A stretch of 64,000 nucleotides of DNA. It comes from Candidatus Levyibacteriota bacterium (GTDB lineage Bacteria > Patescibacteriota > Microgenomatia > Levybacterales > UBA12049). Numbering within the stretch: the first letter of the stretch is position 1; each line of letters opens with the position of its first letter. Position numbers and translations under genes: made by a program. Below are positions 9,095-42,463 of the stretch, piece after piece. Below the pieces are notes generated by a model. That model ran no database searches. It worked only from the letters and a program-made list of their open reading frames with translations, and was not told where the DNA came from. Where the stretch lies: positions 2,820 through 66,819 of the forward strand of contig PJMG01000006.1 in NCBI GenBank assembly GCA_003173895.1. The letters run 5' to 3'.

Positions 9095-9781
9095 ATGGTA
9101 GAAAATGCTGCCCAATCAGTTTATATTCAACCAGAAAAAAACACTACTAGTAAAATTAAAATTATTTTACTCATATCCTTCATACTTTTAATGTGCCTAT
9201 CAATTATTGCTATTTTGTTCTTTATCCACCCTAAGCAGAATACACTCAATACAATAACTAACCAATCACCAAATTCATCAAAAGATCCTACCCAGCAAAT
9301 AAACCTATCTATGCATCAATACCTCACTCAGTGGGTAAATGCACCATATATACCATCTGATACACAATCAAATCTAGTCAAAAATAATAACACCTACTCA
9401 CTTATGTGGCGACGAATAAGTGATATTATCTTAGGAAGACTTATTTTTACTCTTTATTCAAATAATACATTTGACGCTCAACTAAGTATACATTCTAGTA
9501 AGAAAATTGATGTGCTCAATGCTCAACTTGCAAATAGTATAAGTAATATTTACTTTAATCTCAAATCTCCTGTATCATGGAATTGTGGAGAAAATACAAC
9601 AATGGAATTATGTACAAGTTTACTAAAAGAGAATAATGTTCCTTATGAACTTACAGTATATAAATTGCAAGCATTGCAAAATGATGAATTAATTGTGTTA
9701 TGTTCTCTTTCCGAACAAAATCCATTATATGGAACAAAATATTTTTGTTTAGAGAATGATGAAAAACAAATACTTAAATAA
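9095..9781 (+). CDS. membrane-anchored hypothetical protein
   Basis: 228 aa with a single N-terminal TM (IKIILLISFILLMCLSIIAILFFI); overlaps the next gene by 26 nt. Confidence 0.6.
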   Translation: MVENAAQSVYIQPEKNTTSKIKIILLISFILLMCLSIIAILFFIHPKQNTLNTITNQSPNSSKDPTQQINLSMHQYLTQWVNAPYIPSDTQSNLVKNNNTYSLMWRRISDIILGRLIFTLYSNNTFDAQLSIHSSKKIDVLNAQLANSISNIYFNLKSPVSWNCGENTTMELCTSLLKENNVPYELTVYKLQALQNDELIVLCSLSEQNPLYGTKYFCLENDEKQILK

Positions 9782-12290
9782 TAAATTGGTTTTTATATTA
9801 GGTGTATGCTTTCTGCTTATATGCATGTTTGTGGCTATACCAAAAAAAGCGCAGGCACAACCTGCATGTAATTATGGGTTAGGTGGAAGCTGTGAGGTCA
9901 CATGTCCGAATGGTACAGGTTCGGCAGGGATTCAAGATTGTCCTCAGATTGGCGGAGGAATCAGCGAACAATGTTGTGTTGCTTTTCAATATGATTGTGA
10001 TAGTGGTACAGGACCAGGGTATTGTAATAGTCCTAATCAACAGTGTATCCTTACAAATGGATATTTCTATTCTTGTCAAACAACTTGTAACGGTACTTGC
10101 TTTTCTGGAAATGGATGTCCAGGAGGATATTCTCAATCAGGTTCTTGTGCTCTACGCACAAGTCAAAATTCACCTTTAATACAACGCACTTGTTGTGTAG
10201 CTAATGGTGGTGGACCAACTCCCCCTCCTACTTGTAATGGGCAAACGGTTTGTGGAGGGTGGGTAAATCCAGGAGCTAATACTACTTGTGCTGGAAATAA
10301 TTCTCATAGAAATTGTACTACCACTTTTACTAACTGTACTCAAAGTAGCTTTACTCAATATCGTACAGTTAATAGCTGTACAGCAGGACATACTTGTTAT
10401 ACCGATGGTACTTGTCATTTAACTAATTGCACTACTGGTGAAGTAAATTGTGGTGCTTGTGGAGGAGGTACTCAACCTGCCAATACATGTAATAATACTA
10501 ATTCTAATCCTGGAGGTAGAACCTGTCATCATAACGGTCCTGCAGGCTGTCTGAATCAAGTAACTTTTCGAGCTACTGACTGTTCATATTCATATAATAC
10601 CTGTAATAACACATATACATGTCCTGCTGGAAGTACAGGTCATACAAACTGTACTACTACTTTAACAGTACGTTTATTTATAGATTATAACCATAACGGA
10701 GTTAAAGATGGTGAAGATCCTTACTACACTGCTGCAAATGTATCAGTTAGATTGGCGTGGAATGGAGGTAGTAATACCTCAGCCTTTGATAATACAGGAA
10801 CTCATACTTTTACAGTCCAGTCCAATAATTACACACTTTCACTAGTAGGAGTCCCAGGAAATTATAGAATTATCAGTAGGAATCCATATCCTATTGGCAT
10901 GGGCCCTGCTGCGACTGTAAATCTGGCTATTACTCCACTATATTCTATTTCAGGAACTGTTTATGATGATACTAATAAAAATAAAATATTTGATCCTAAT
11001 TGTGGAAATCCTAACCCTTCTCTTTGTGATCATGGAGTAAATCAAGGAGGAGTTACTATGGTTTTTAAAGATGATGGATCTAAAACTACGGCTGCTATAA
11101 ATGGAGATGGTACATTTAATTCTGGTACTACACTCGAATCAGGAACTTATACTGTGAATTATACTTTGCCTAATGGTAATGAATGGGAAATGTCTTATCC
11201 TATACCTGCTACATTAATCATAGATGTAGGTAAACCAGGAACTTCTCGCCCCTGTAATGATGGAACCTATAATGATGTAGCTTGTGATGGAACTGGTAAC
11301 ATAACAGGTGCTGACTTTGGTATTACGAATGAATATCCTTCTCATGTAGGAATCTGTACTGATCAGAGAGATGATAATGGTTTTACCGATCCCTTACCTC
11401 AACCTCCTGGTTCTACGGCTGCCTGTGGAAACTATTCTCTAAATGGTACCTCTTATCCACTGGTAATGAGTTATGCAGATATTTGTCCCACTAATGCTGG
11501 TACAGGTATAATTTTTTCAGGCAATCAGGATCCATTTTTTGGTCAAGGAGCAGCCTCTAAAACAAATTGGAGTGTGGGAAATACTACTTATCCTGAAAAT
11601 TATACACCCGCTCAACCTGGAGTGATAACTACATCTTATGATTATTTAGTGGGATTAGCACAATCTTCAGGAATAGATTTTACTAACCCTAGTAATGAGC
11701 TTATAACTTATTGTGATTTAAATAACTGTACTTTACCCTCGAACTTACCAAATGGTGTTTATTTCGCTGATGGAGATGTTAATTTAAATGCATATACTTT
11801 TCCAAGTAATAAAGAATATGTAATTTTAGTGAATGGAAATTTAACTATAAATGGAAATATCTTACTTCCTACAGGATCAGATGCTATTTTTGCAGTTAGC
11901 GGAAATATTATTATTCCACCGACTGTGGGAGAAACTGATCCTACATCATCTGACGCTGATATCGAAGGACTCTACTCTGCTGGGGGATCAGTTCTGATAG
12001 AATCTGCTGCTACTCCCATTCAACCATGTAACAATGACGCTAGTGCTATCGATAAAAGATTAAATATTTATGGTAGTATGAATGCTAATACTAAACAAGT
12101 AGGCGGATCTGTCCAGAATCAGAGAGATCTTTGTGTCTCTGATGTCATTTGTCCTACTTATATGGTTAGTATCGGTGATGGAAATCCTGATGGAAATAGA
12201 GTCGGCGCAGGCACTGGTGTTTCATATATTCTTAATGCTCCCCAATTCATCATGCATAAGAATTATTTCTACCAGGAAGTAAACCCATAA
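9756..12290 (+). CDS. large secreted Cys-rich adhesin-like protein (SdrD-B/CarboxypepD_reg-like segments, beta-helix-like C-terminus)
   Basis: signal peptide ..AIPKKAQA; ~300-aa Cys-dense N-terminal half; VRLFIDYNHNGVKDGEDPYY and ISGTVYDDTNKNKIFDP calcium-type motifs; repetitive LTINGNILLP/VSGNIIIPP C-terminal part. Confidence 0.7.
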   Translation: MMKNKYLNNKLVFILGVCFLLICMFVAIPKKAQAQPACNYGLGGSCEVTCPNGTGSAGIQDCPQIGGGISEQCCVAFQYDCDSGTGPGYCNSPNQQCILTNGYFYSCQTTCNGTCFSGNGCPGGYSQSGSCALRTSQNSPLIQRTCCVANGGGPTPPPTCNGQTVCGGWVNPGANTTCAGNNSHRNCTTTFTNCTQSSFTQYRTVNSCTAGHTCYTDGTCHLTNCTTGEVNCGACGGGTQPANTCNNTNSNPGGRTCHHNGPAGCLNQVTFRATDCSYSYNTCNNTYTCPAGSTGHTNCTTTLTVRLFIDYNHNGVKDGEDPYYTAANVSVRLAWNGGSNTSAFDNTGTHTFTVQSNNYTLSLVGVPGNYRIISRNPYPIGMGPAATVNLAITPLYSISGTVYDDTNKNKIFDPNCGNPNPSLCDHGVNQGGVTMVFKDDGSKTTAAINGDGTFNSGTTLESGTYTVNYTLPNGNEWEMSYPIPATLIIDVGKPGTSRPCNDGTYNDVACDGTGNITGADFGITNEYPSHVGICTDQRDDNGFTDPLPQPPGSTAACGNYSLNGTSYPLVMSYADICPTNAGTGIIFSGNQDPFFGQGAASKTNWSVGNTTYPENYTPAQPGVITTSYDYLVGLAQSSGIDFTNPSNELITYCDLNNCTLPSNLPNGVYFADGDVNLNAYTFPSNKEYVILVNGNLTINGNILLPTGSDAIFAVSGNIIIPPTVGETDPTSSDADIEGLYSAGGSVLIESAATPIQPCNNDASAIDKRLNIYGSMNANTKQVGGSVQNQRDLCVSDVICPTYMVSIGDGNPDGNRVGAGTGVSYILNAPQFIMHKNYFYQEVNP

Positions 12291-12304
12291 AAAAATTAAT
12301 CTCT

Positions 12305-12412
12305 GTCATCCTGAGTGACCCGCTTCGCCGAAGCGATAGCGAGGCGAGAACGAAAAATCTTTATCTTGGAAAGACTTAAGTATATAGATCCTTCGCTGAG
12401 GCTCAGGATGAC
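12305..12412. repeat. 108-bp MITE-like element with perfect 11-bp terminal inverted repeats (GTCATCCTGAG / CTCAGGATGAC)
   Basis: read directly; left half is near-identical (rev-comp) to 21952-22007; fills the gap between convergent stops at 12290 and 12420. Confidence 0.75.
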
Positions 12413-12419
12413 ATATTAT

Positions 12420-12971
12420 TTATTTTTTCATTAAAGTGAAGTTGAGGTTAGAGGGGATTTCGTTTTTATTAGAATCTAACATTTTTAATTCTGTATTATT
12501 TACTTTTAAATAATATTCCGTCTGATTAGAGTTATTCGGATTTAGTTGATAAATCAAAGCATTAGGATTATTTTTCATTCCATTTGTATAAGTCCAATTC
12601 CCCACTTCATCAAAAGGTTTTACATTTCTACCTAAATAAACTAATTCCAAGCTATAAGTCGTGGGTTTTAAGGTATTAGGATTTTGATAAAGAGTTAACG
12701 TAGTTTGAATTCCTTCACAGTCAGCGCAAGGGAATTTACCAGTATAAATTCCTACTATATTCGAATTAGCATTTTTAGTAGGAGCAAAAATAGTTTTATG
12801 TGCTAAGAGGAAGATTAAAAATCCAAAAATAATAACTAGAACCACGATTAAAATCTTAAAATTCTTATTTAATTCTCTTTTTAGAAAATTATTATTATTT
12901 TGTTTAGAAATCACTTTCTTTTTAGCAGAAGAATTTTTAATATTTTTATTTTTTTTAATTTCCTTTTTCAT
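12420..12971 (-). CDS. NlpE N-terminal domain-like (copper-resistance/envelope-stress lipoprotein family) protein, membrane anchored
   Basis: motif GIYTGKFPCADCEGIQTTLTLY matches the NlpE_N Y-x-G-x-LPCADCxGI signature; N-terminal TM. Confidence 0.6.
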   Translation of the reverse strand: MKKEIKKNKNIKNSSAKKKVISKQNNNNFLKRELNKNFKILIVVLVIIFGFLIFLLAHKTIFAPTKNANSNIVGIYTGKFPCADCEGIQTTLTLYQNPNTLKPTTYSLELVYLGRNVKPFDEVGNWTYTNGMKNNPNALIYQLNPNNSNQTEYYLKVNNTELKMLDSNKNEIPSNLNFTLMKK

Positions 12972-13083
12972 TTGAACTTTTGCCTGTCCGCCTTAGCTTT
13001 AGCGATGGCGGAATTTTTTCATTTTAATCTCTATATTTATCAAAGTATATTTTTACATAATTTGCAATAGATAATTAGGAAAT

Positions 13084-13110
13084 GAGATTCTTCGTTTCAC
13101 TTAGAATGAC
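13084..13110. repeat. short unit of GTCATCCTGAG/CGAAGGATC hairpin repeat family
   Basis: GAGATTCTTCGTTTCACTTAGAATGAC. Confidence 0.6.
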
Positions 13111-13175
13111 AAAAGATAAAGCAAGTAGGAATGTACTTTTAAGTAGCAAAATACATGCTACGAGCTGAGTATAAA

Positions 13176-13202
13176 GATCCTTTCGCTGAAGCTCAGGATG
13201 AC
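13176..13202. repeat. short unit of GTCATCCTGAG/CGAAGGATC hairpin repeat family
   Basis: GATCCTTTCGCTGAAGCTCAGGATGAC, 26 nt downstream of the stop of 13228..14724. Confidence 0.65.
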
Positions 13203-13227
13203 GAAAATAGTTTATAATGACAAGAAT

Positions 13228-14724
13228 TTATTGGCAGGCGAATTGGACGGGTGGAGATAAGGGAGAAAAATTAGCAGAATTAGCTGAGGTAGAATAAGAA
13301 TATTGCGCATAATAAGTAGCACCAGTGGTAACGATATAGCCAGTAGTTAGAGATTGAGACTGAGTAGGATTAGCAGGATTAAGTGTAGTATTTAAAACCT
13401 GATTTCCTTGACTCGCGTATGTCATCACTAAATTATAGCTTTGAGCGTTTTGTAAATTAGACTGCGTATTATAATTTATAGTCACTTGCCAATTACCATT
13501 TTGCTGACCATTACAGGAAACATTAATAGTCGATCCACTAGGCGCTGATAACTGCTGCTGCGCATTAATAGTAAGTAAATTATTAGCAGATGGCGCTGTG
13601 AGAGTAAGAATATTTGATTGAGAGTAAGGCTGACCATTAGACCATAAATAAGCTTGAACATCATAAGACTGACCTGAATTAGCATTATTCCAAACCCAAC
13701 TTACCCCATCAGTGGCTGAAATATTTCCATTTATTTGATTAAAAGTACCTGTCCCTGTAGGACGAGTCGCTAACGTTATATAAGAATTAGGAGGAATGCT
13801 ACCATTTATATTTATAGTTCCTGAAATACCTGTAATAGCTGGTGCAGGTGGATTAGCTGTGGAACTAATAGCCAAATTAATATTGGATGAAGGCGCTGTT
13901 AAAGTTTGTAAACTACTACTGCTAATCAAAGATCCAGTACTACTTATTAAATTAGCTTGTATTTGATAAGTTTGACCTGAAATAGCACTACTCCACGACC
14001 AATTCACGCCATCTGTAGCAGACAGATTAGTCACTGCATTAATTAAGTTATTCGAATTATTTTGCTCAACCACTATATTAATATAGCTACCTGCAGGGAT
14101 ATAACCATCTAAATGAACATTTCCATTGATGGATGTGTTAGTAGTTTGAGGTGATTTTTGTTCTGAAACCAATGGTAAAACTATAGTATCAGCTGGTGCA
14201 GAGACAGAATTTATAGATGACTGTTCTATTACTTTTCCGCTTACCTTAATAGTGGCTTTAATATCATAGTTAGTACCACTATCAGCATCACTCCAATCCC
14301 AAGGAATATTACCACTTTGCGGCACTAATCCACTCACCACATCACTAAATTCAGCTTTACCACTAGGTCTAGCAGCTATAGCTAAGTACGAACCTGCTGG
14401 TGCATAACCTTCGAAATTTATTACACCAGAAATACTAGCAGGTGGCGCAGGTGTAGGTGTGATTATTTGTGTTTGATTTTTAGTAAAATATGTAAGACCA
14501 TTTTTACTATTAAAAAATATTAACCATACAATTGCGACTATTAAAATTATACTCACTACTCCTAAGAGTATAAGTAGTGGATTTAAAAACTTATTTTCCT
14601 TCTCTTCTTCTGTTTCAGTTGATGTGGAAGGTGGAGTTACTGGTGGAGGTGGTGTTTGTACAGGCTCCGTTGATATAATTGGAGCCGAATTATTTAAATT
14701 ATTATTTCCATCAGAGGGTTGCAT
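13228..14724 (-). CDS. membrane-anchored surface protein with three tandem ~95-aa repeats
   Basis: Pro-rich N-terminus, TM (LLILLGVVSIILIVAIVWLIFF), then three repeats each with GY.P.GSY.., W.W.., SG..Y.., ..LTAPS.. landmarks. Confidence 0.7.
   Translation of the reverse strand: MQPSDGNNNLNNSAPIISTEPVQTPPPPVTPPSTSTETEEEKENKFLNPLLILLGVVSIILIVAIVWLIFFNSKNGLTYFTKNQTQIITPTPAPPASISGVINFEGYAPAGSYLAIAARPSGKAEFSDVVSGLVPQSGNIPWDWSDADSGTNYDIKATIKVSGKVIEQSSINSVSAPADTIVLPLVSEQKSPQTTNTSINGNVHLDGYIPAGSYINIVVEQNNSNNLINAVTNLSATDGVNWSWSSAISGQTYQIQANLISSTGSLISSSSLQTLTAPSSNINLAISSTANPPAPAITGISGTININGSIPPNSYITLATRPTGTGTFNQINGNISATDGVSWVWNNANSGQSYDVQAYLWSNGQPYSQSNILTLTAPSANNLLTINAQQQLSAPSGSTINVSCNGQQNGNWQVTINYNTQSNLQNAQSYNLVMTYASQGNQVLNTTLNPANPTQSQSLTTGYIVTTGATYYAQYSYSTSANSANFSPLSPPVQFACQ
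13564..14433 (-). repeat. three tandem diverged domain repeats (coding)
   Basis: aa 98-186, 198-287 and 299-387 align: ISGVINFEGYAPAGSY / INGNVHLDGYIPAGSY / ISGTININGSIPPNSY etc. Confidence 0.7.
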
Positions 14725-21866: not shown

Positions 21867-21951
21867 GGGATTAGTTTAATTGTGGAATACTTAAGAATAA
21901 ATTGCAAGAAAAGGAAAGAGAAAAAAATTGTTTATTAAATTTCTAAAAGAC

Positions 21952-22007
21952 GAGATTCTTCTCTCTCGCCTCGATTCGATTCGGCGAAGCGGGTCGTTCA
22001 GAATGAC
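21952..22007. repeat. long unit of GTCATCCTGAG/CGAAGGATC repeat family
   Basis: GAGATTCTTCTCTCTCGCCTCGATTCGATTCGGCGAAGCGGGTCGTTCAGAATGAC, close to rev-comp of 12305-12360; 7 nt downstream of the stop at 22015. Confidence 0.75.
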
Positions 22008-22014
22008 AAAGAGT

Positions 22015-22605
22015 TTAGGAGGACATGGTGGTTTCTTCTCTAGCTGTTTTTAACATTTTTGCAAACCATATTAATTGTTCTAACATATTTTTAGCCGTAT
22101 CCTCTGCACTTTCAAAAGCACCAGGTTTTAAATTTCCATTCTCATCTACCATAGTCCAAGAAAAAGGAAAATGAACTCCATTTCGGATAGGTACCATTTG
22201 TAATTCTATGACTACTTGTCTTAATTGCTGTACGGCGCGAGTTCCTGCTGCAATTCCTCCATAACTTATAAAAGCTACTGGTTTATTATGCCATTGGGCA
22301 AAAACATAATCGATAGCATTTTTTAAAACCGCACTGTAACCATGATTATATTCAGGAGTTACCATAATATATGCATCACCCTCACCTATTTTTTCCGCCC
22401 ATTTGGCTGCTAAATCTAAAGTGTATTTTCCTTTAGAAGCATTTGGAGACATAGGTTCATTAAAAAAAGGAAGCGGCCAATTTCTTAAATCAATTAACTC
22501 CGCTTCTACTCCCTCCATTTTAGATAATTTCTCAAAAATCCACTTTGCAGGTTTTTCTGAAAATCTATTTGGTCGAGTCGATCCAATGATTACTTGAATT
22601 TTCAT
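22015..22605 (-). CDS. NADPH-dependent FMN reductase family protein
   Basis: MKIQVIIGSTRPNRFS.., YIMVTPEYNHGYSAVLKNAIDY. Confidence 0.8.
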   Translation of the reverse strand: MKIQVIIGSTRPNRFSEKPAKWIFEKLSKMEGVEAELIDLRNWPLPFFNEPMSPNASKGKYTLDLAAKWAEKIGEGDAYIMVTPEYNHGYSAVLKNAIDYVFAQWHNKPVAFISYGGIAAGTRAVQQLRQVVIELQMVPIRNGVHFPFSWTMVDENGNLKPGAFESAEDTAKNMLEQLIWFAKMLKTAREETTMSS

Positions 22606-32377: not shown

Positions 32378-32462
32378 GTCGTCGCGAGCGACTATAAGGA
32401 GCGTGGCCATCTTAATAGGATTATATGAGATTGCTTTGTAATTTTATGATCTCGCAATGAAG
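32378..32462. repeat. pair of inverted hairpin-repeat units (CGCGAG/CTCGCA variant)
   Basis: GTCGTCGCGAGCGACTATAAGGAGCGTGGCCATC ... GAGATTGCTTTGTAATTTTATGATCTCGCAATGAAG; 28 nt downstream of the stop at 32490. Confidence 0.5.
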
Positions 32463-32489
32463 AAGATAAAATTTCGTATTTTACACTAT

Positions 32490-33589: not shown

Positions 33590-33609
33590 GATCCTTCGTT
33601 CCACTCAGG
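33590..33609. repeat. truncated unit of the hairpin repeat family
   Basis: GATCCTTCGTTCCACTCAGG, 22 nt downstream of the HK stop (33632). Confidence 0.45.
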
Positions 33610-33631
33610 CCATAGCTCTTGAGCCCCAGAC

Positions 33632-35086
33632 TCATAGAGATGATGAAACTGGGAGAGAAAAATAGAATGTAGAACCCTTACCTTCTGAACTTTCCACCCA
33701 CAGCTTACCTTTATGCAGTTTAATTATTTGACTAGAAATATATAAACCCAAACCTAATCCTGGATAAGTCTCATGACCTCGTACTTGATAAAATCGATCA
33801 AATATTTTCTTGTGAGCAATCTTAGGTATACCTATTCCAAAATCTTTCACATAAATTTCGATAGTATTTTTTTTAGGACGAGAACCGATAATAATATCTT
33901 TATCTGCTTTAGAATATTTAATAGCATTCGTAACTAAATTCGTAAGTACTTGTCTTATTCTTTCTTTATCAGCATACACATATAGTTTAGTATGCCAGTC
34001 TAATTTAAGCTTATGGAATGTGGTAGGTTGTAAGTCTTCTACTATTTCTTTCGCTAATTCTTTAACTAAGAACTTTTCCTTTTCTACTTTTAAACCACCT
34101 TTATAAAGTCTAGTAACGTCTAATAATTCTTTAACTAGATCTGTTAATTTATTTAGTTGAAGGTCAATTTTTTTAATTACTTTCTCTGATTCGGAATCCT
34201 GAGATTTTTGAAATCTCTTTTTCAAAATTTGCGCGAAAACAGTAGCAGATGTTAGAGGTGTTTTTAATTCATGAGAAGCCATATTAATAAAATCATCTTT
34301 TTTCTCCTCTAATTCTCTTTGAATAGTAATATCATTTATAATTTCTGCAGCAGCAATTATTTTTCCTTTCTTGTTAAGAATAGGAGCAGCACTAACTTGT
34401 AAAAATGTTTTTTTTCCATCTTTTTTTTGAATAGTTATGTTTTCGTTTTTTAATTTTTTCCCTTTTAATGCTGTTAATATAGGAGCTTGAGAAGCATTTA
34501 ATGGTTTATTATTAATTTCCGCATTTAAAAGTAATTCTTCACCATATATAAATTCTGTAGGAATTTTCATATCAATTATATTTTCCAGTTGTTTATTTTG
34601 GTGAATAACTTTACCAGTAGCATCGGAAATAATTATTCCTACTGGTAGTTGTTCTACAATAGTTTCCAACTGCTTTCTGCCATCTGCTTCTTTTTCGATT
34701 AAACTATCTACTGTTTGTTTTAATCCTCCAATTATCGCAGAAAGGCCAAAATATATTAACCCCAAATAAATGGTTGTTTCAACCCCAGCTATAAATTTTC
34801 CATTAGTATAACTTCTAGTTTCAATAATATATAAATAATATAAAATGGTTAAAGTACTAGTCGTAAAACCTCCTATTACTCCATTTCTAAGTGAGAAATA
34901 AATAATTAAGATTACATTAACAAAAATGATATAAGTTCCAACTATGTTAGGATCTTTTAAGATTTTATAAGATAAAAATTCCGATAAAATAAAAACAATA
35001 ATATTAAAGATAAGTGGAAAAAGAAAAGAATAATTTTTTTTACCCAGTTGCTTAATTGGATTTAAATAATCCAATATTTTTATCAT
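33632..35086 (-). CDS. sensor histidine kinase (multi-TM N-terminus, PAS, HisKA, HATPase_c)
   Basis: H-box MASHELKTPLTS; N box LTNLVTNAIKYS; G boxes DFGIGIP, GLGLGLYISSQIIKLHKGKLWVES. Confidence 0.9.
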   Translation of the reverse strand: MIKILDYLNPIKQLGKKNYSFLFPLIFNIIVFILSEFLSYKILKDPNIVGTYIIFVNVILIIYFSLRNGVIGGFTTSTLTILYYLYIIETRSYTNGKFIAGVETTIYLGLIYFGLSAIIGGLKQTVDSLIEKEADGRKQLETIVEQLPVGIIISDATGKVIHQNKQLENIIDMKIPTEFIYGEELLLNAEINNKPLNASQAPILTALKGKKLKNENITIQKKDGKKTFLQVSAAPILNKKGKIIAAAEIINDITIQRELEEKKDDFINMASHELKTPLTSATVFAQILKKRFQKSQDSESEKVIKKIDLQLNKLTDLVKELLDVTRLYKGGLKVEKEKFLVKELAKEIVEDLQPTTFHKLKLDWHTKLYVYADKERIRQVLTNLVTNAIKYSKADKDIIIGSRPKKNTIEIYVKDFGIGIPKIAHKKIFDRFYQVRGHETYPGLGLGLYISSQIIKLHKGKLWVESSEGKGSTFYFSLPVSSSL

Positions 35087-36263: not shown

Positions 36264-37136
36264 ATGAATGAATTTAATTTCGGGCAGTTTTTAAAAAAAT
36301 ACGGTAGTGAGAAAAAATGTTTGGATTACCTCATAAAACTTAAGTGTCCTGATGGTATTTACTGCAAACAATGTGAGAGGGTAAAAAAGTTTACAAAGAT
36401 TAGAACAAGAACTGTCTATCAATGCTCTTGTGGATATCAAGTAAGTCCACTAGTTGGAACAATCTTTGAAAAAAGTAGTACACCTTTAACTTACTGGTTT
36501 TACGCAATCTTCTTGATGTCTAATACCAGATCAGGCATATCAGCAAAACAGTTACAAAGAGAGCTTGGAGTAACTTACAAAACAGCCTGGAGGATGTTTA
36601 AACAAATAAGAATCTTGATGCAATACACGACAGATAAACTTAAAGGAACGATTGAAGTAGATGAAACTTATGTAGGAGGTAAAGGGTGGAATAGAAGATA
36701 TATTCCTAATTTTAATGAGAAACCGAAAGAAGTAGTTTTCGGGATGGTAGAAAGAAATGGGAATGCGAAGCTACTTCATTTACCAGGTAATGGTAGAAGA
36801 CAATTAGTCGAAGAAATTCAAAAAAACATAGATAAAGGCTCCTATATTATCAGTGATCAATATGCAGCATACAATTACGTAACAAAGATTGGTTATACCC
36901 ATGATTTTGTAACTCATCGAAAAGAGTATGTTAGTAAAAAAGATCCGAATGTTTACACACAAAATATCGAGAGCATCTGGTCTCACTTAAAGAGAGGAAT
37001 CTTTGGAGTTTATCGAAAGACTTCCAAGAAATACTTACAGAGTTACGTTAACGAATTTGCTTTTAGATATAACTATAGAAATCAAAATATGTTTGATATA
37101 TTGATTAAACAGTCAATTAATTCTAAAATTAAATAA
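36264..37136 (+). CDS. IS1595-family (ISXO2-like) DDE transposase with N-terminal zinc ribbon
   Basis: CPDGIYCKQCERV..YQCSCGYQVS zinc ribbon; VEVDETYVGGK; ISDQYAAYNYV; YTQNIESIWSHLKRGIFGVYRKTSKKYLQSYVNEFAFRYNYRN. Confidence 0.85.
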   Translation: MNEFNFGQFLKKYGSEKKCLDYLIKLKCPDGIYCKQCERVKKFTKIRTRTVYQCSCGYQVSPLVGTIFEKSSTPLTYWFYAIFLMSNTRSGISAKQLQRELGVTYKTAWRMFKQIRILMQYTTDKLKGTIEVDETYVGGKGWNRRYIPNFNEKPKEVVFGMVERNGNAKLLHLPGNGRRQLVEEIQKNIDKGSYIISDQYAAYNYVTKIGYTHDFVTHRKEYVSKKDPNVYTQNIESIWSHLKRGIFGVYRKTSKKYLQSYVNEFAFRYNYRNQNMFDILIKQSINSKIK

Positions 37137-40682: not shown

Positions 40683-40725
40683 GTCATCCTGAGTTTCAAC
40701 GAAGGATCTATATTTTCAGAATGAC
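40683..40725. repeat. hairpin-repeat units in the ArsR-AHSA1 intercistronic gap
   Basis: GTCATCCTGAGTTTCAACGAAGGATC plus CAGAATGAC; 3 nt downstream of the ArsR stop. Confidence 0.65.
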
Positions 40726-41957: not shown

Positions 41958-42040
41958 AGCAAAAGTATTATAATCTTAAATTAAGATATTATCATTATTA
42001 AAAAACTGCCAGCAAAGCCAGCAGTTTTAATATTAAGAAC

Positions 42041-42115
42041 GAGATCCTTCGACTCCTTAGGTTTCACTCAGGATAAGTTCGCTCGGGATGACAATTTTGA
42101 ACAAGACAGAATGAC
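42041..42115. repeat. hairpin-repeat units downstream of the YCII-like gene
   Basis: GAGATCCTTCGACTCCTTAGGTTTCACTCAGGATAAGTTCGCTCGGGATGAC ... CAGAATGAC; ends 4 nt from the stop at 42119. Confidence 0.65.
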
Positions 42116-42118
42116 AAT

Positions 42119-42463
42119 TTATTGTTTAATCATTCCATTCATATCCCACATTTCATGAACATCGATTTCTCCACCTGGTCTATCTAAATGTGGATTATCT
42201 TTTAAGAGATTAACTGCAGTATCAATATCTTCTGCTTGGACGATATCATAGGCCACTAGTGATGCATCTCCTGGCATAACATCACTTTTAGTTAATTTCA
42301 TCGCGTGTGTCACAGGACTTCCTTTATCCACTACAGCATCCCCTACCTTAGCGAACCAATCCATCCATGGCTTCATACCAGCTTGCATTTGTTCTGGTGT
42401 AGCACTTTGCATTTTTTCTCGCTCTTCAGCTGTGGCAAAAAATAAAACTAAAAATTTTTTCAT
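42119..42463 (-). CDS. YCII/DGPF-related small protein (weak)
   Basis: 114 aa, MKKFLVLFFATAEE..SATPEQMQAGMKPWMDWFAKVG; SD GAGGTGA 6 nt upstream. Confidence 0.45.
   Translation of the reverse strand: MKKFLVLFFATAEEREKMQSATPEQMQAGMKPWMDWFAKVGDAVVDKGSPVTHAMKLTKSDVMPGDASLVAYDIVQAEDIDTAVNLLKDNPHLDRPGGEIDVHEMWDMNGMIKQ

Follow-up and report, generated by a model that had tools for sequence, protein, structure and literature searches.

A 108-bp inverted-repeat element between convergent Patescibacteria genes read as a dimer of GTC-tagged hairpin repeats

Introduction

What kind of element fills the short space between two convergent genes in a low-GC Patescibacteria MAG? In the 64-kb stretch of this genome studied here (hereafter the window, meaning the whole stretch of DNA that was analysed; 31% GC), positions 12305-12412 begin and end in inverted repeats, and a preliminary description of the locus, which called it MITE-like, suggested that these 108 bp could be a non-autonomous mobile element, a bidirectional terminator, or both at once. 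The same outline is also offered by hairpin repeats of bacterial genomes, whose copies are frequently paired in inverted orientation.

Among these repeats, the CGTC-tagged REPs carry a CGTC or TGTC (or CCTC) tag, stems of 8-9 bp beginning with AT, loops of 4-5 nt and a short tail (PMC3733652). They occur mostly as dimers with the tags outside (HH), often heterodimers, with spacers of 20-100 nt; copies between convergent genes are separated by less than 20 bp from either ORF end, and some CGTC copies are found in frame inside genes (PMC3733652). The family includes dRS3 of Neisseria and RPE-4/-6 of Rickettsia (PMC3733652). In Neisseria, SsnA is a 94-aa single-domain GIY-YIG nuclease (Chenal 2025) that binds and cuts the NTS sequence, CGTCATTCCCGCGMAVGCGGGAATCYRG, as ssDNA only and on one strand only (PMC11893778). 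Cleavage of NTS depends on the GTC trinucleotide 5′ of the palindrome, and binding by SsnA above all on the C just 3′ of it; ssn genes are typically flanked by SRM motifs in an IS-like arrangement (PMC11893778).

Here we describe the anatomy of the 12305-12412 locus, its relatives in the window and in other genomes, and the genes found with them, and we weigh the explanations that these observations allow.

Results

Position, repeats and folding of the locus

The locus sits between two convergent stop codons, starting 14 nt after the stop at 12290 and ending 7 nt before the stop at 12420. The 11 bp at its left end, GTCATCCTGAG (12305-12315), form the perfect reverse complement of the 11 bp at its right end, CTCAGGATGAC (12402-12412), so both the placement and the perfect inverted repeats of the preliminary description are confirmed. 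With up to one mismatch, the GTCATCCTGAG 11-mer occurs six times in the 64-kb window, against 0.48 occurrences expected and with none of 100 shuffles reaching six; four of the six are exact.

The recurrence of both parts of the element elsewhere in the window, also noted at that stage, holds as well. The left part is a near copy of the reverse complement of about 21952-22007, with 49 of 63 aligned columns identical over 21949-22010, mostly within the unit defined below. The right 26 nt (12387-12412) are found again at 40683-40708 and, differing by one indel and one mismatch, at 13176-13202. The intergenic stretch between 12290 and 12420 (~129-135 nt) folds into one long hairpin, which stands out from shuffled sequences both as RNA (z = -4.6 for the plus strand and -5.6 for the minus strand) and as DNA (z = -4.1). 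An Rfam search returned no family matching the 108-bp element.

Two facing units

Unit architecture was read from every GTCAT in the window. The recurrent short unit is oriented and consists of a (T/C)GTC tag, a stem starting with AT, a loop, a complementary arm ending in AT, and then a C. In one sub-type, referred to here as the G.A sub-type, the stem has the form ATCCTGAG(N)/(N')CGAAGGAT and contains a tandem G.A mismatch. The locus itself has three parts, a long unit, a 27-nt spacer and a short unit, arranged as an HH dimer with the tags outside (Table 1). What looked like terminal inverted repeats are the heads of the two units, each comprising the tag and the 5′ arm, because the 108 bp consists of two inverted units. 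Each unit type also occurs in solitary form in the window, at 13176-13202, 13086-13110 and 21954-22007.

The right unit is an exact match to the pattern GTCATCCTGAG-N4-8-CGAAGGATCT, and its stem combines seven Watson-Crick pairs with the tandem G.A. In the left unit the 5′ arm (ATCCTGAG, 12308-12315) is intact and the 3′ arm (CGAAAAAT, 12351-12358) has decayed from CGAAGGAT through two G>A changes (AAAAT); its own stem can no longer be closed, and the loop measures 35 nt. The flanks of the left unit are nevertheless those of the short units, GTCATCCTGAG ... CGAAAAATC, with a CGAAxxATC-type end. Tags read TGTC at 12304-12307 (+) and 12413-12410 (-), and CGTC at 13202 and 40683, while AT..AT stem ends are present in all units. 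Taken alone, the short units are weak hairpins, at -1 to -3.5 kcal/mol (DNA, nearest-neighbour) and z of about -1.4 to +0.5.

Table 1 Repeat units, their parts and neighbouring genes, by position in the window
Feature	Position	Strand	Description
HH dimer of two classical NTS-like units	4644..4704	.	in frame within Wzy_C/TPR ORF 3202..5613
NTS-like unit	4645-4668	+	GTC-ATTCCCGC-GAAG-GCGGGAAT-C, perfect hairpin
NTS-like unit	4679-4703	-	GTC-ATCCCCGA-CCTGA-TCGGGGAT-C, perfect hairpin
Convergent gene, left	9756..12290	+	844 aa, SdrD_B-like surface protein (weak similarity); stop 14 nt before left tag
Left long unit	12305..12359	+	tag GTC 12305-12307, T at 12304; conserved C 12359
Nested module	12317..12349	+	33 nt, GACCCGCTTCGCCGAAGCGATAGCGAGGCGAGA; fills loop of left unit
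Spacer	12360..12386	.	27 nt; in the long-hairpin fold, partial pairing within itself and to the unit tails
Right short unit	12387..12412	-	GTC-ATCCTGAGC-CTCA-GCGAAGGAT-C; intact
Convergent gene, right	12420..12971	-	183 aa, NlpE N-terminal domain; stop 7 nt from right tag
Singleton short unit	13086..13110	-	compensated stem ATTCT/AGAAT
Singleton short unit	13176..13202	-	25 nt past stop of ORF 13228..14724
Second long unit	21954..22007	-	ATTCT/AGAAT stem (compensated) and same 33-nt module as left unit
Degenerate unit	33590..33613	-	CCTGAGTGGAACGAAGGATC, tag lost; downstream of histidine kinase gene 33632..35086
HH heterodimer, 43 nt	40683..40725	.	short unit 40683-40708 (+) and inverted ATTCT-type head 40716-40725 (-) without 3′ arm
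Complex/nested unit and isolated head	42043..42092 and 42106..42115	-	just past stop of ORF 42119..42463

Related units in the window

Units were also counted under a generic definition, namely GTC followed by ATNNN and, no more than 50 nt on, by the reverse complement of this 5-mer and a C. Nine such units are present in the 64-kb window, compared with 1.9 in dinucleotide shuffles (shuffle maximum 5). Two of the nine, in AT-rich coding sequence, look like chance occurrences. The GTC 5′ of the palindrome and the C 3′ of it are kept in every window unit except 33590-33613, where the GTC is lost. The second long unit follows the stop of an FMN reductase gene (22015..22605) by 7 nt. In the heterodimer at 40683-40725, the loop-closing pair of the short unit is T-A instead of C-G, and intact versions of this heterodimer were found in a Curtissbacteria MAG (locus L101, 1699-1745 and 2773-2831).

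The dimer inside the Wzy_C/TPR gene is built of classical NTS-like units. The two hairpins have energies of -8.9 (4645-4668) and -8.4 kcal/mol (4679-4703; both as DNA), and 4644-4671 (TGTCATTCCCGCGAAGGCGGGAATCTAT) agrees with 26 of the 28 positions of the Neisseria NTS consensus. With the published SRM search pattern, HGTCWYN(0-2)YYVSBRHN(0-5)WNVSBRGN(0-2)RNCYNB (PMC11893778), the sole matches in the window are 4644-4671 (+) and 4676-4704 (-), where 0.05 are expected. Neither unit of 12305-12412 matches this pattern, because the stem carries the tandem G.A mismatch.

The ~20 residues that the 4644-4704 dimer encodes (IVIPAKAGIYAEGSPIRSG) are missing from the closest Wzy_C homologs, and their site is a variable loop between conserved membrane segments of Wzy_C. 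Judged against these homologs, the dimer appears as an insertion-like difference for the repeat family. Homologues of the Wzy_C/TPR protein bear names such as Levybacteria, Microgenomates and Patescibacteria, which, taken with the 31% GC, assigns the window to a Microgenomates-like Patescibacteria MAG. The two closest usable relatives (L126 and L127; Wzy_C 59-63% identical, 31% GC, 26.7 kb in total) contain no units and no site syntenic to 12305-12412. The next homolog of the 844-aa protein (38% identity) belongs to an organism of 48% GC, where its neighbours differ and units are absent, and protein-guided scans for relatives, with RpoD on genome contigs and the 844-aa protein on metagenome contigs, found none.

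The nested 33-nt module

The module that fills the loop of the left unit folds alone at -8.6 kcal/mol (DNA). A metagenome scan located it in seven contigs (L128-L134; 37-45% GC), inside outer stems that differ from one another and are unrelated. In two of them, L128 and L133, it lies within another GTC-tagged unit, GTCATTGCGAGCGACT-(module)-AGGAGCGTGGCAATC, that is itself part of an HH dimer. Window positions 32383-32470 are a decayed homologue of this dimer without the module, with an ATA loop instead. Since the module is found inside unrelated stems and is absent from 32383-32470, it has been gained or lost separately from the units, in hairpin loops. Enlarged unit loops are also common in another Patescibacteria MAG (L072).

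Distribution and arrangement in other genomes

A scan of one genome per species with the pattern GTCATCCTGAG-N4-8-CGAAGGATCT recovered the exact short unit in genomes of more than 15 phyla, at least 120 stretches in all; chance alone would give about one match in 596 Gb. Among the matches listed, the hosts include Chloroflexota, Acidobacteriota, Bacteroidota, Bacillota, Planctomycetota, Omnitrophota, Gemmatimonadota, Nitrospirota, Cyanobacteria, Verrucomicrobiota and several classes of Pseudomonadota; Patescibacteria are represented there by Saccharibacteria and Curtissbacteria. The locus at 12305-12412 belongs to a dispersed repeat family that is very probably mobile or expanding.

In 120 stretches among the matches listed (842 kb), 317 generic units were counted, and neighbouring pairs within 150 nt comprise 78 HH, 16 TT and 6 HT arrangements. 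The median spacer of these 78 HH dimers is ~27 nt, and the spacer at 12360-12386 has 27 nt. The base preceding the tag (-1) is T in 125 of 154 cases (77 HH dimers among the matches listed). Also among the matches listed, the loop-closing pair is Watson-Crick in 139 of 150 units, G-C and T-A variants included, and half of the units possess a GCGNAGC core. This core is a known extra-stable DNA mini-hairpin motif (PMC13037366), and its presence in half of the units points to structure at the DNA level. The flanks of HH dimers elsewhere tend to extend the inverted repeat, with a few dimers or cassettes (e.g. L099) lying inside perfect outer palindromes; extensions and outer palindromes of this kind were also noted by Di Nocera (PMC3733652).

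Small GIY-YIG genes flanked by units

At 4 of the 120 listed loci, a GIY-YIG gene (Pfam PF01541, 93-96 aa) lies directly between or beside units whose tags point outside. These loci belong to a member of the Chloroflexota (L099), to Hymenobacter (L063), to a member of the Cyclobacteriaceae (L007) and to an alphaproteobacterium (L061). All GIY-YIG matches in the 842 kb of listed loci adjoin units, and E-values of 4e-18 and 5e-15 against PF01541 were obtained for unit-flanked genes. By Pfam domain, size and context, the four flanked proteins were assigned as Ssn-like, making them candidate relatives of SsnA/cd10448. A PDB search yielded a single weak match, the UPF0213 GIY-YIG protein 1zg2 (E = 0.002), and the PDB and NCBIfam searches gave no more precise name. 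In their layout, the unit-GIY-YIG-unit loci reproduce for the G.A sub-type the published NTS-ssnA-NTS arrangement.

In the 64-kb window, no GIY-YIG gene was detected by regex, by tblastn or by HMM over ORFs of at least 50 aa, and in viral contigs none of 93 unit-carrying stretches has an adjacent GIY-YIG gene. The putative partnership with an Ssn-type GIY-YIG nuclease is drawn from other genomes and not from this window.

Alternative explanations

The preliminary description implied a unitary MITE, that is, a 108-bp non-autonomous IS derivative moved whole by a DDE transposase through its 11-bp TIRs. The perfect inverted termini and the intergenic position agree with such an element, and the window does contain an IS1595-family DDE transposase gene (36264..37136), but this gene, the only transposase in the window, has no related ends. 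Neither the window nor the 134 loci examined contains a further full-length copy, and the 27-nt spacer is unique; moreover, the halves occur independently of each other, and the supposed TIR is common to singleton units. Target-site duplications are likewise lacking at 12305-12412, where the flanks (...AATCTCT / ATATTAT...) share no direct repeat, and 77 comparable HH dimers elsewhere show zero or one junction direct repeat for each k from 2 to 8, which amounts to at most one of the 77. We regard movement as a unitary MITE as extremely improbable. The outward-facing tags do match the geometry of the unit-GIY-YIG-unit cassettes of other genomes, and in this respect the locus can fairly be called a non-autonomous relative of a mobile cassette. 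A REP doublet mobilised by RAYT (TnpA_REP, an IS200-like Y1 transposase), known as a REPIN, would share the architecture of two inverted REPs able to fold into one hairpin, and the RAYT system works with ssDNA hairpins that carry a guide tetranucleotide on their 5′ side (PMC6006769). The tag here is GTC/TGTC and not GTAG, however, and the genes flanked by this unit type are GIY-YIG; Pfam scans of window ORFs of at least 100 aa found no Y1 transposase, and Di Nocera et al. (2013) found no transposase associated with CGTC-type REPs (PMC3733652). A REPIN origin is in our view very unlikely.

It is also conceivable that the locus arose for the purpose of ending transcripts, as a bidirectional intrinsic terminator or 3′-end stabiliser whose similarity to repeats is secondary. 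Its site exactly between convergent stops and its 13-bp outer stem followed by U-rich sequence on both strands speak for this, as does the fact that seven of the eight intergenic window units read in the sense of a gene ending 2-26 nt upstream; both isolated heads do so too, and a location mostly 3′ of ORFs has been reported for REPs elsewhere (PMC3733652). Yet a consensus terminator scan of 11800-13400 found none, and the T-run on the right is made of the Lys-Lys-stop codons of the convergent gene. Members of the family also occur inside an ORF (4644-4704) and upstream of a start codon (40683-40725), and the 42043-42092 unit lies before a separate, strong terminator-like hairpin (U6 tail, -17.4 kcal/mol, z = -6.6). 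The sense orientation fits a role at the RNA level but equally a bias at the DNA level, because the same sense-oriented intergenic units are all on the G-rich strand. Finally, that one and the same sequence is found in more than 15 phyla speaks for a partner that recognises this sequence and not for a generic hairpin. An origin as a terminator or stabiliser is, on balance, unlikely.

With a probability of roughly 0.7, we instead read 12305-12412 as an HH dimer of GTC-tagged units of the CGTC/TGTC-REP superfamily, to which dRS3/NTS, RPE-4/-6 and SRM belong.

Discussion

The 12305-12412 locus represents no new type of transposon; it falls within a known repeat class, as an ordinary member. With the Neisseria NTS/SRM repeats it shares the GTC 5′ of an AT..AT palindrome that is followed by C, the oriented, dispersed and mostly intergenic occurrence of the units, and, for its unit type in four other genomes, the cassettes around a ~94-aa single-domain GIY-YIG gene. 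It differs from them in its stems (ATCCTGAG/CGAAGGAT with the tandem G.A), in the one nested 33-nt module, and in a Patescibacteria host with no ssn gene seen within 64 kb. The resemblance to CGTC-REP 1-4, RPE-4/-6 included, covers the tag, the AT stem start, the short tail, the predominance of HH dimers and heterodimers with 20-100-nt spacers, the position less than 20 bp past both convergent stops and the occasional in-frame copies. In contrast to the published CGTC-REP 1-4 stems of 8-9 perfect base pairs with loops of 4-5 nt, the stem of the present units is interrupted by G.A/A.G and one loop has 35 nt; and whereas five phyla are listed in PMC3733652, the G.A unit type was found here in more than 15, Patescibacteria included.

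More distant comparisons are instructive in the same way. The REPIN/BIME elements of E. coli and Pseudomonas are likewise inverted hairpin doublets located 3′ of genes and proposed to act as ssDNA hairpin substrates, but they bear a GTAG tag and depend on a Y1 HUH transposase instead of a GIY-YIG protein. MITEs such as Correia/NEMIS, RUP and Nezha are small and intergenic, have inverted termini and form a long hairpin in transcripts; unlike the present dimer, they move as one piece, make TSDs and share ends with DDE-type IS, none of which was found here.

If the analogy with NTS holds, each unit, when single-stranded, would form a hairpin to be recognised by an Ssn-type GIY-YIG nuclease, which would cut the DNA a few nucleotides upstream of the tag on its 5′ side. 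Spread or maintenance of the family would then rely on single-strand chemistry and not on DDE transposition, and the 12305-12412 dimer may be related to the unit-ssn-unit cassette while lacking its gene. In this locus each tag is placed 7-14 nt past a stop and has the same sense as the gene that ends there. A large hairpin would thus form the end of either convergent mRNA, and stabilisation or attenuation of these transcripts may follow as a side effect that is plausible but unproven.

A bolder version of this scheme, which we consider doubtful, is that HH dimers are gene-less derivatives of unit-ssn-unit cassettes mobilised in trans, the GIY-YIG nuclease driving a hairpin-guided, TSD-free spread that would include smaller modules inserted in loops. 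If true, it would represent a transposition-like mechanism not yet described, and would account for the identity of a unit with 21 specified bases across more than 15 phyla, among them the Patescibacteria with their reduced genomes.

What had appeared to be a novel MITE is refiled as a dimer of a known and very widespread hairpin repeat. Three points may be of use to specialists. One is the nested 33-nt module, found in the loops of unrelated hairpins. Another is the G.A sub-type (GTCATCCTGAG-loop-CGAAGGATC), which falls outside the SRM pattern and yet borders small GIY-YIG genes and has an identical sequence in more than 15 phyla. The third is that a Patescibacteria genome carries such repeats, among them a near-perfect Neisseria-type NTS in frame in a membrane-protein gene.

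Repeat loci in the window

Among the HH dimers, in which two inverted GTC-tagged units carry their tags outside, the one in the Wzy_C/TPR gene has a unit identical to the consensus of NTS, the Neisseria repeat cut by the GIY-YIG nuclease SsnA, at 26 of 28 positions. The approximately 20 residues encoded by this dimer are absent from the two closest Wzy_C/TPR homologues, and its position inside the ORF is similar to that of the in-frame RPEs of Rickettsia. The heterodimer has lost the 3′ arm of its second unit (ATTCT-type), and its intact equivalents are found in a Curtissbacteria MAG (L101, 1699-1745 and 2773-2831). In the decayed dimer, the tag has been changed by mutation to GTCGTC. The homologous unit at this locus lacks the 33-nt module, which is also present in several low-GC metagenome contigs (L128-L134), in the loops of unrelated hairpins.

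Coordinates of repeat and hairpin features in the window
Feature	Position	Strand	Remarks
HH dimer, two classical NTS-like units	4644-4704		In frame within ORF 3202..5613 (Wzy_C/TPR membrane protein)
33-nt module GACCCGCTTCGCCGAAGCnnnAGCGAGGCGAGA	12317-12349 and 21963-21994		In hairpin loops
Decayed HH dimer, other GTC-tagged type, GTCATTGCGAGCGACT...AGGAGCGTGGCAATC	32383-32470
HH heterodimer, 43 nt	40683-40725		Between ArsR-type gene stop and AHSA1-like gene start
Terminator-like hairpin CUGCUGGC-UUU-GCUGGCAG + U6	about 41999-42024	-	Strong fold

All five singleton units are on the - strand, which is the G-rich strand; GC skew of the + strand is negative nearly throughout (1-64000).

Other hairpins and genes

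The terminator-like hairpin (-17.4 kcal/mol, z = -6.6) lies immediately downstream of the repeat unit 42043-42092 and was not detected by the consensus terminator scan. A GC-rich hairpin without a GTC tag, TCCGCC...GGCGGA (12988-13012), is located immediately upstream of the NlpE-like gene; it may represent either a unit that has decayed or a structure in the 5′ UTR.

Elsewhere, an Rfam DUF3800-IX RNA (RF02968; 5737-5806(+), 61 bits, E = 7e-11) adjoins a DUF3800 gene (5809..6426(-)) at its 3′ end; the RNA and the gene are on opposite strands. An IS1595-family DDE transposase gene (36264-37136(+); Pfam PF12762, E = 1.5e-35) has no recognisable terminal inverted repeats nearby, and the 64-kb window (1-64000) contains no tRNA genes.

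Units in other genomes and viruses

The exact G.A-type unit, the short-unit sub-type with a tandem G.A mismatch in its stem, was found in 93 IMG/VR viral-contig stretches (L135-L227), none of which has a GIY-YIG gene adjoining it. One viral contig (L178, 8594-8969) carries five copies in a tandem array spaced by about 87 nt.

Perfect outer palindromes of 12-16 nt, reaching past the tags, enclose both a unit-GIY-YIG-unit cassette in a Chloroflexota stretch (L099, 3300-3800) and an HH dimer in L011 (926-1057). This arrangement suggests either insertion into pre-existing palindromes or that the true ends of these elements are longer.
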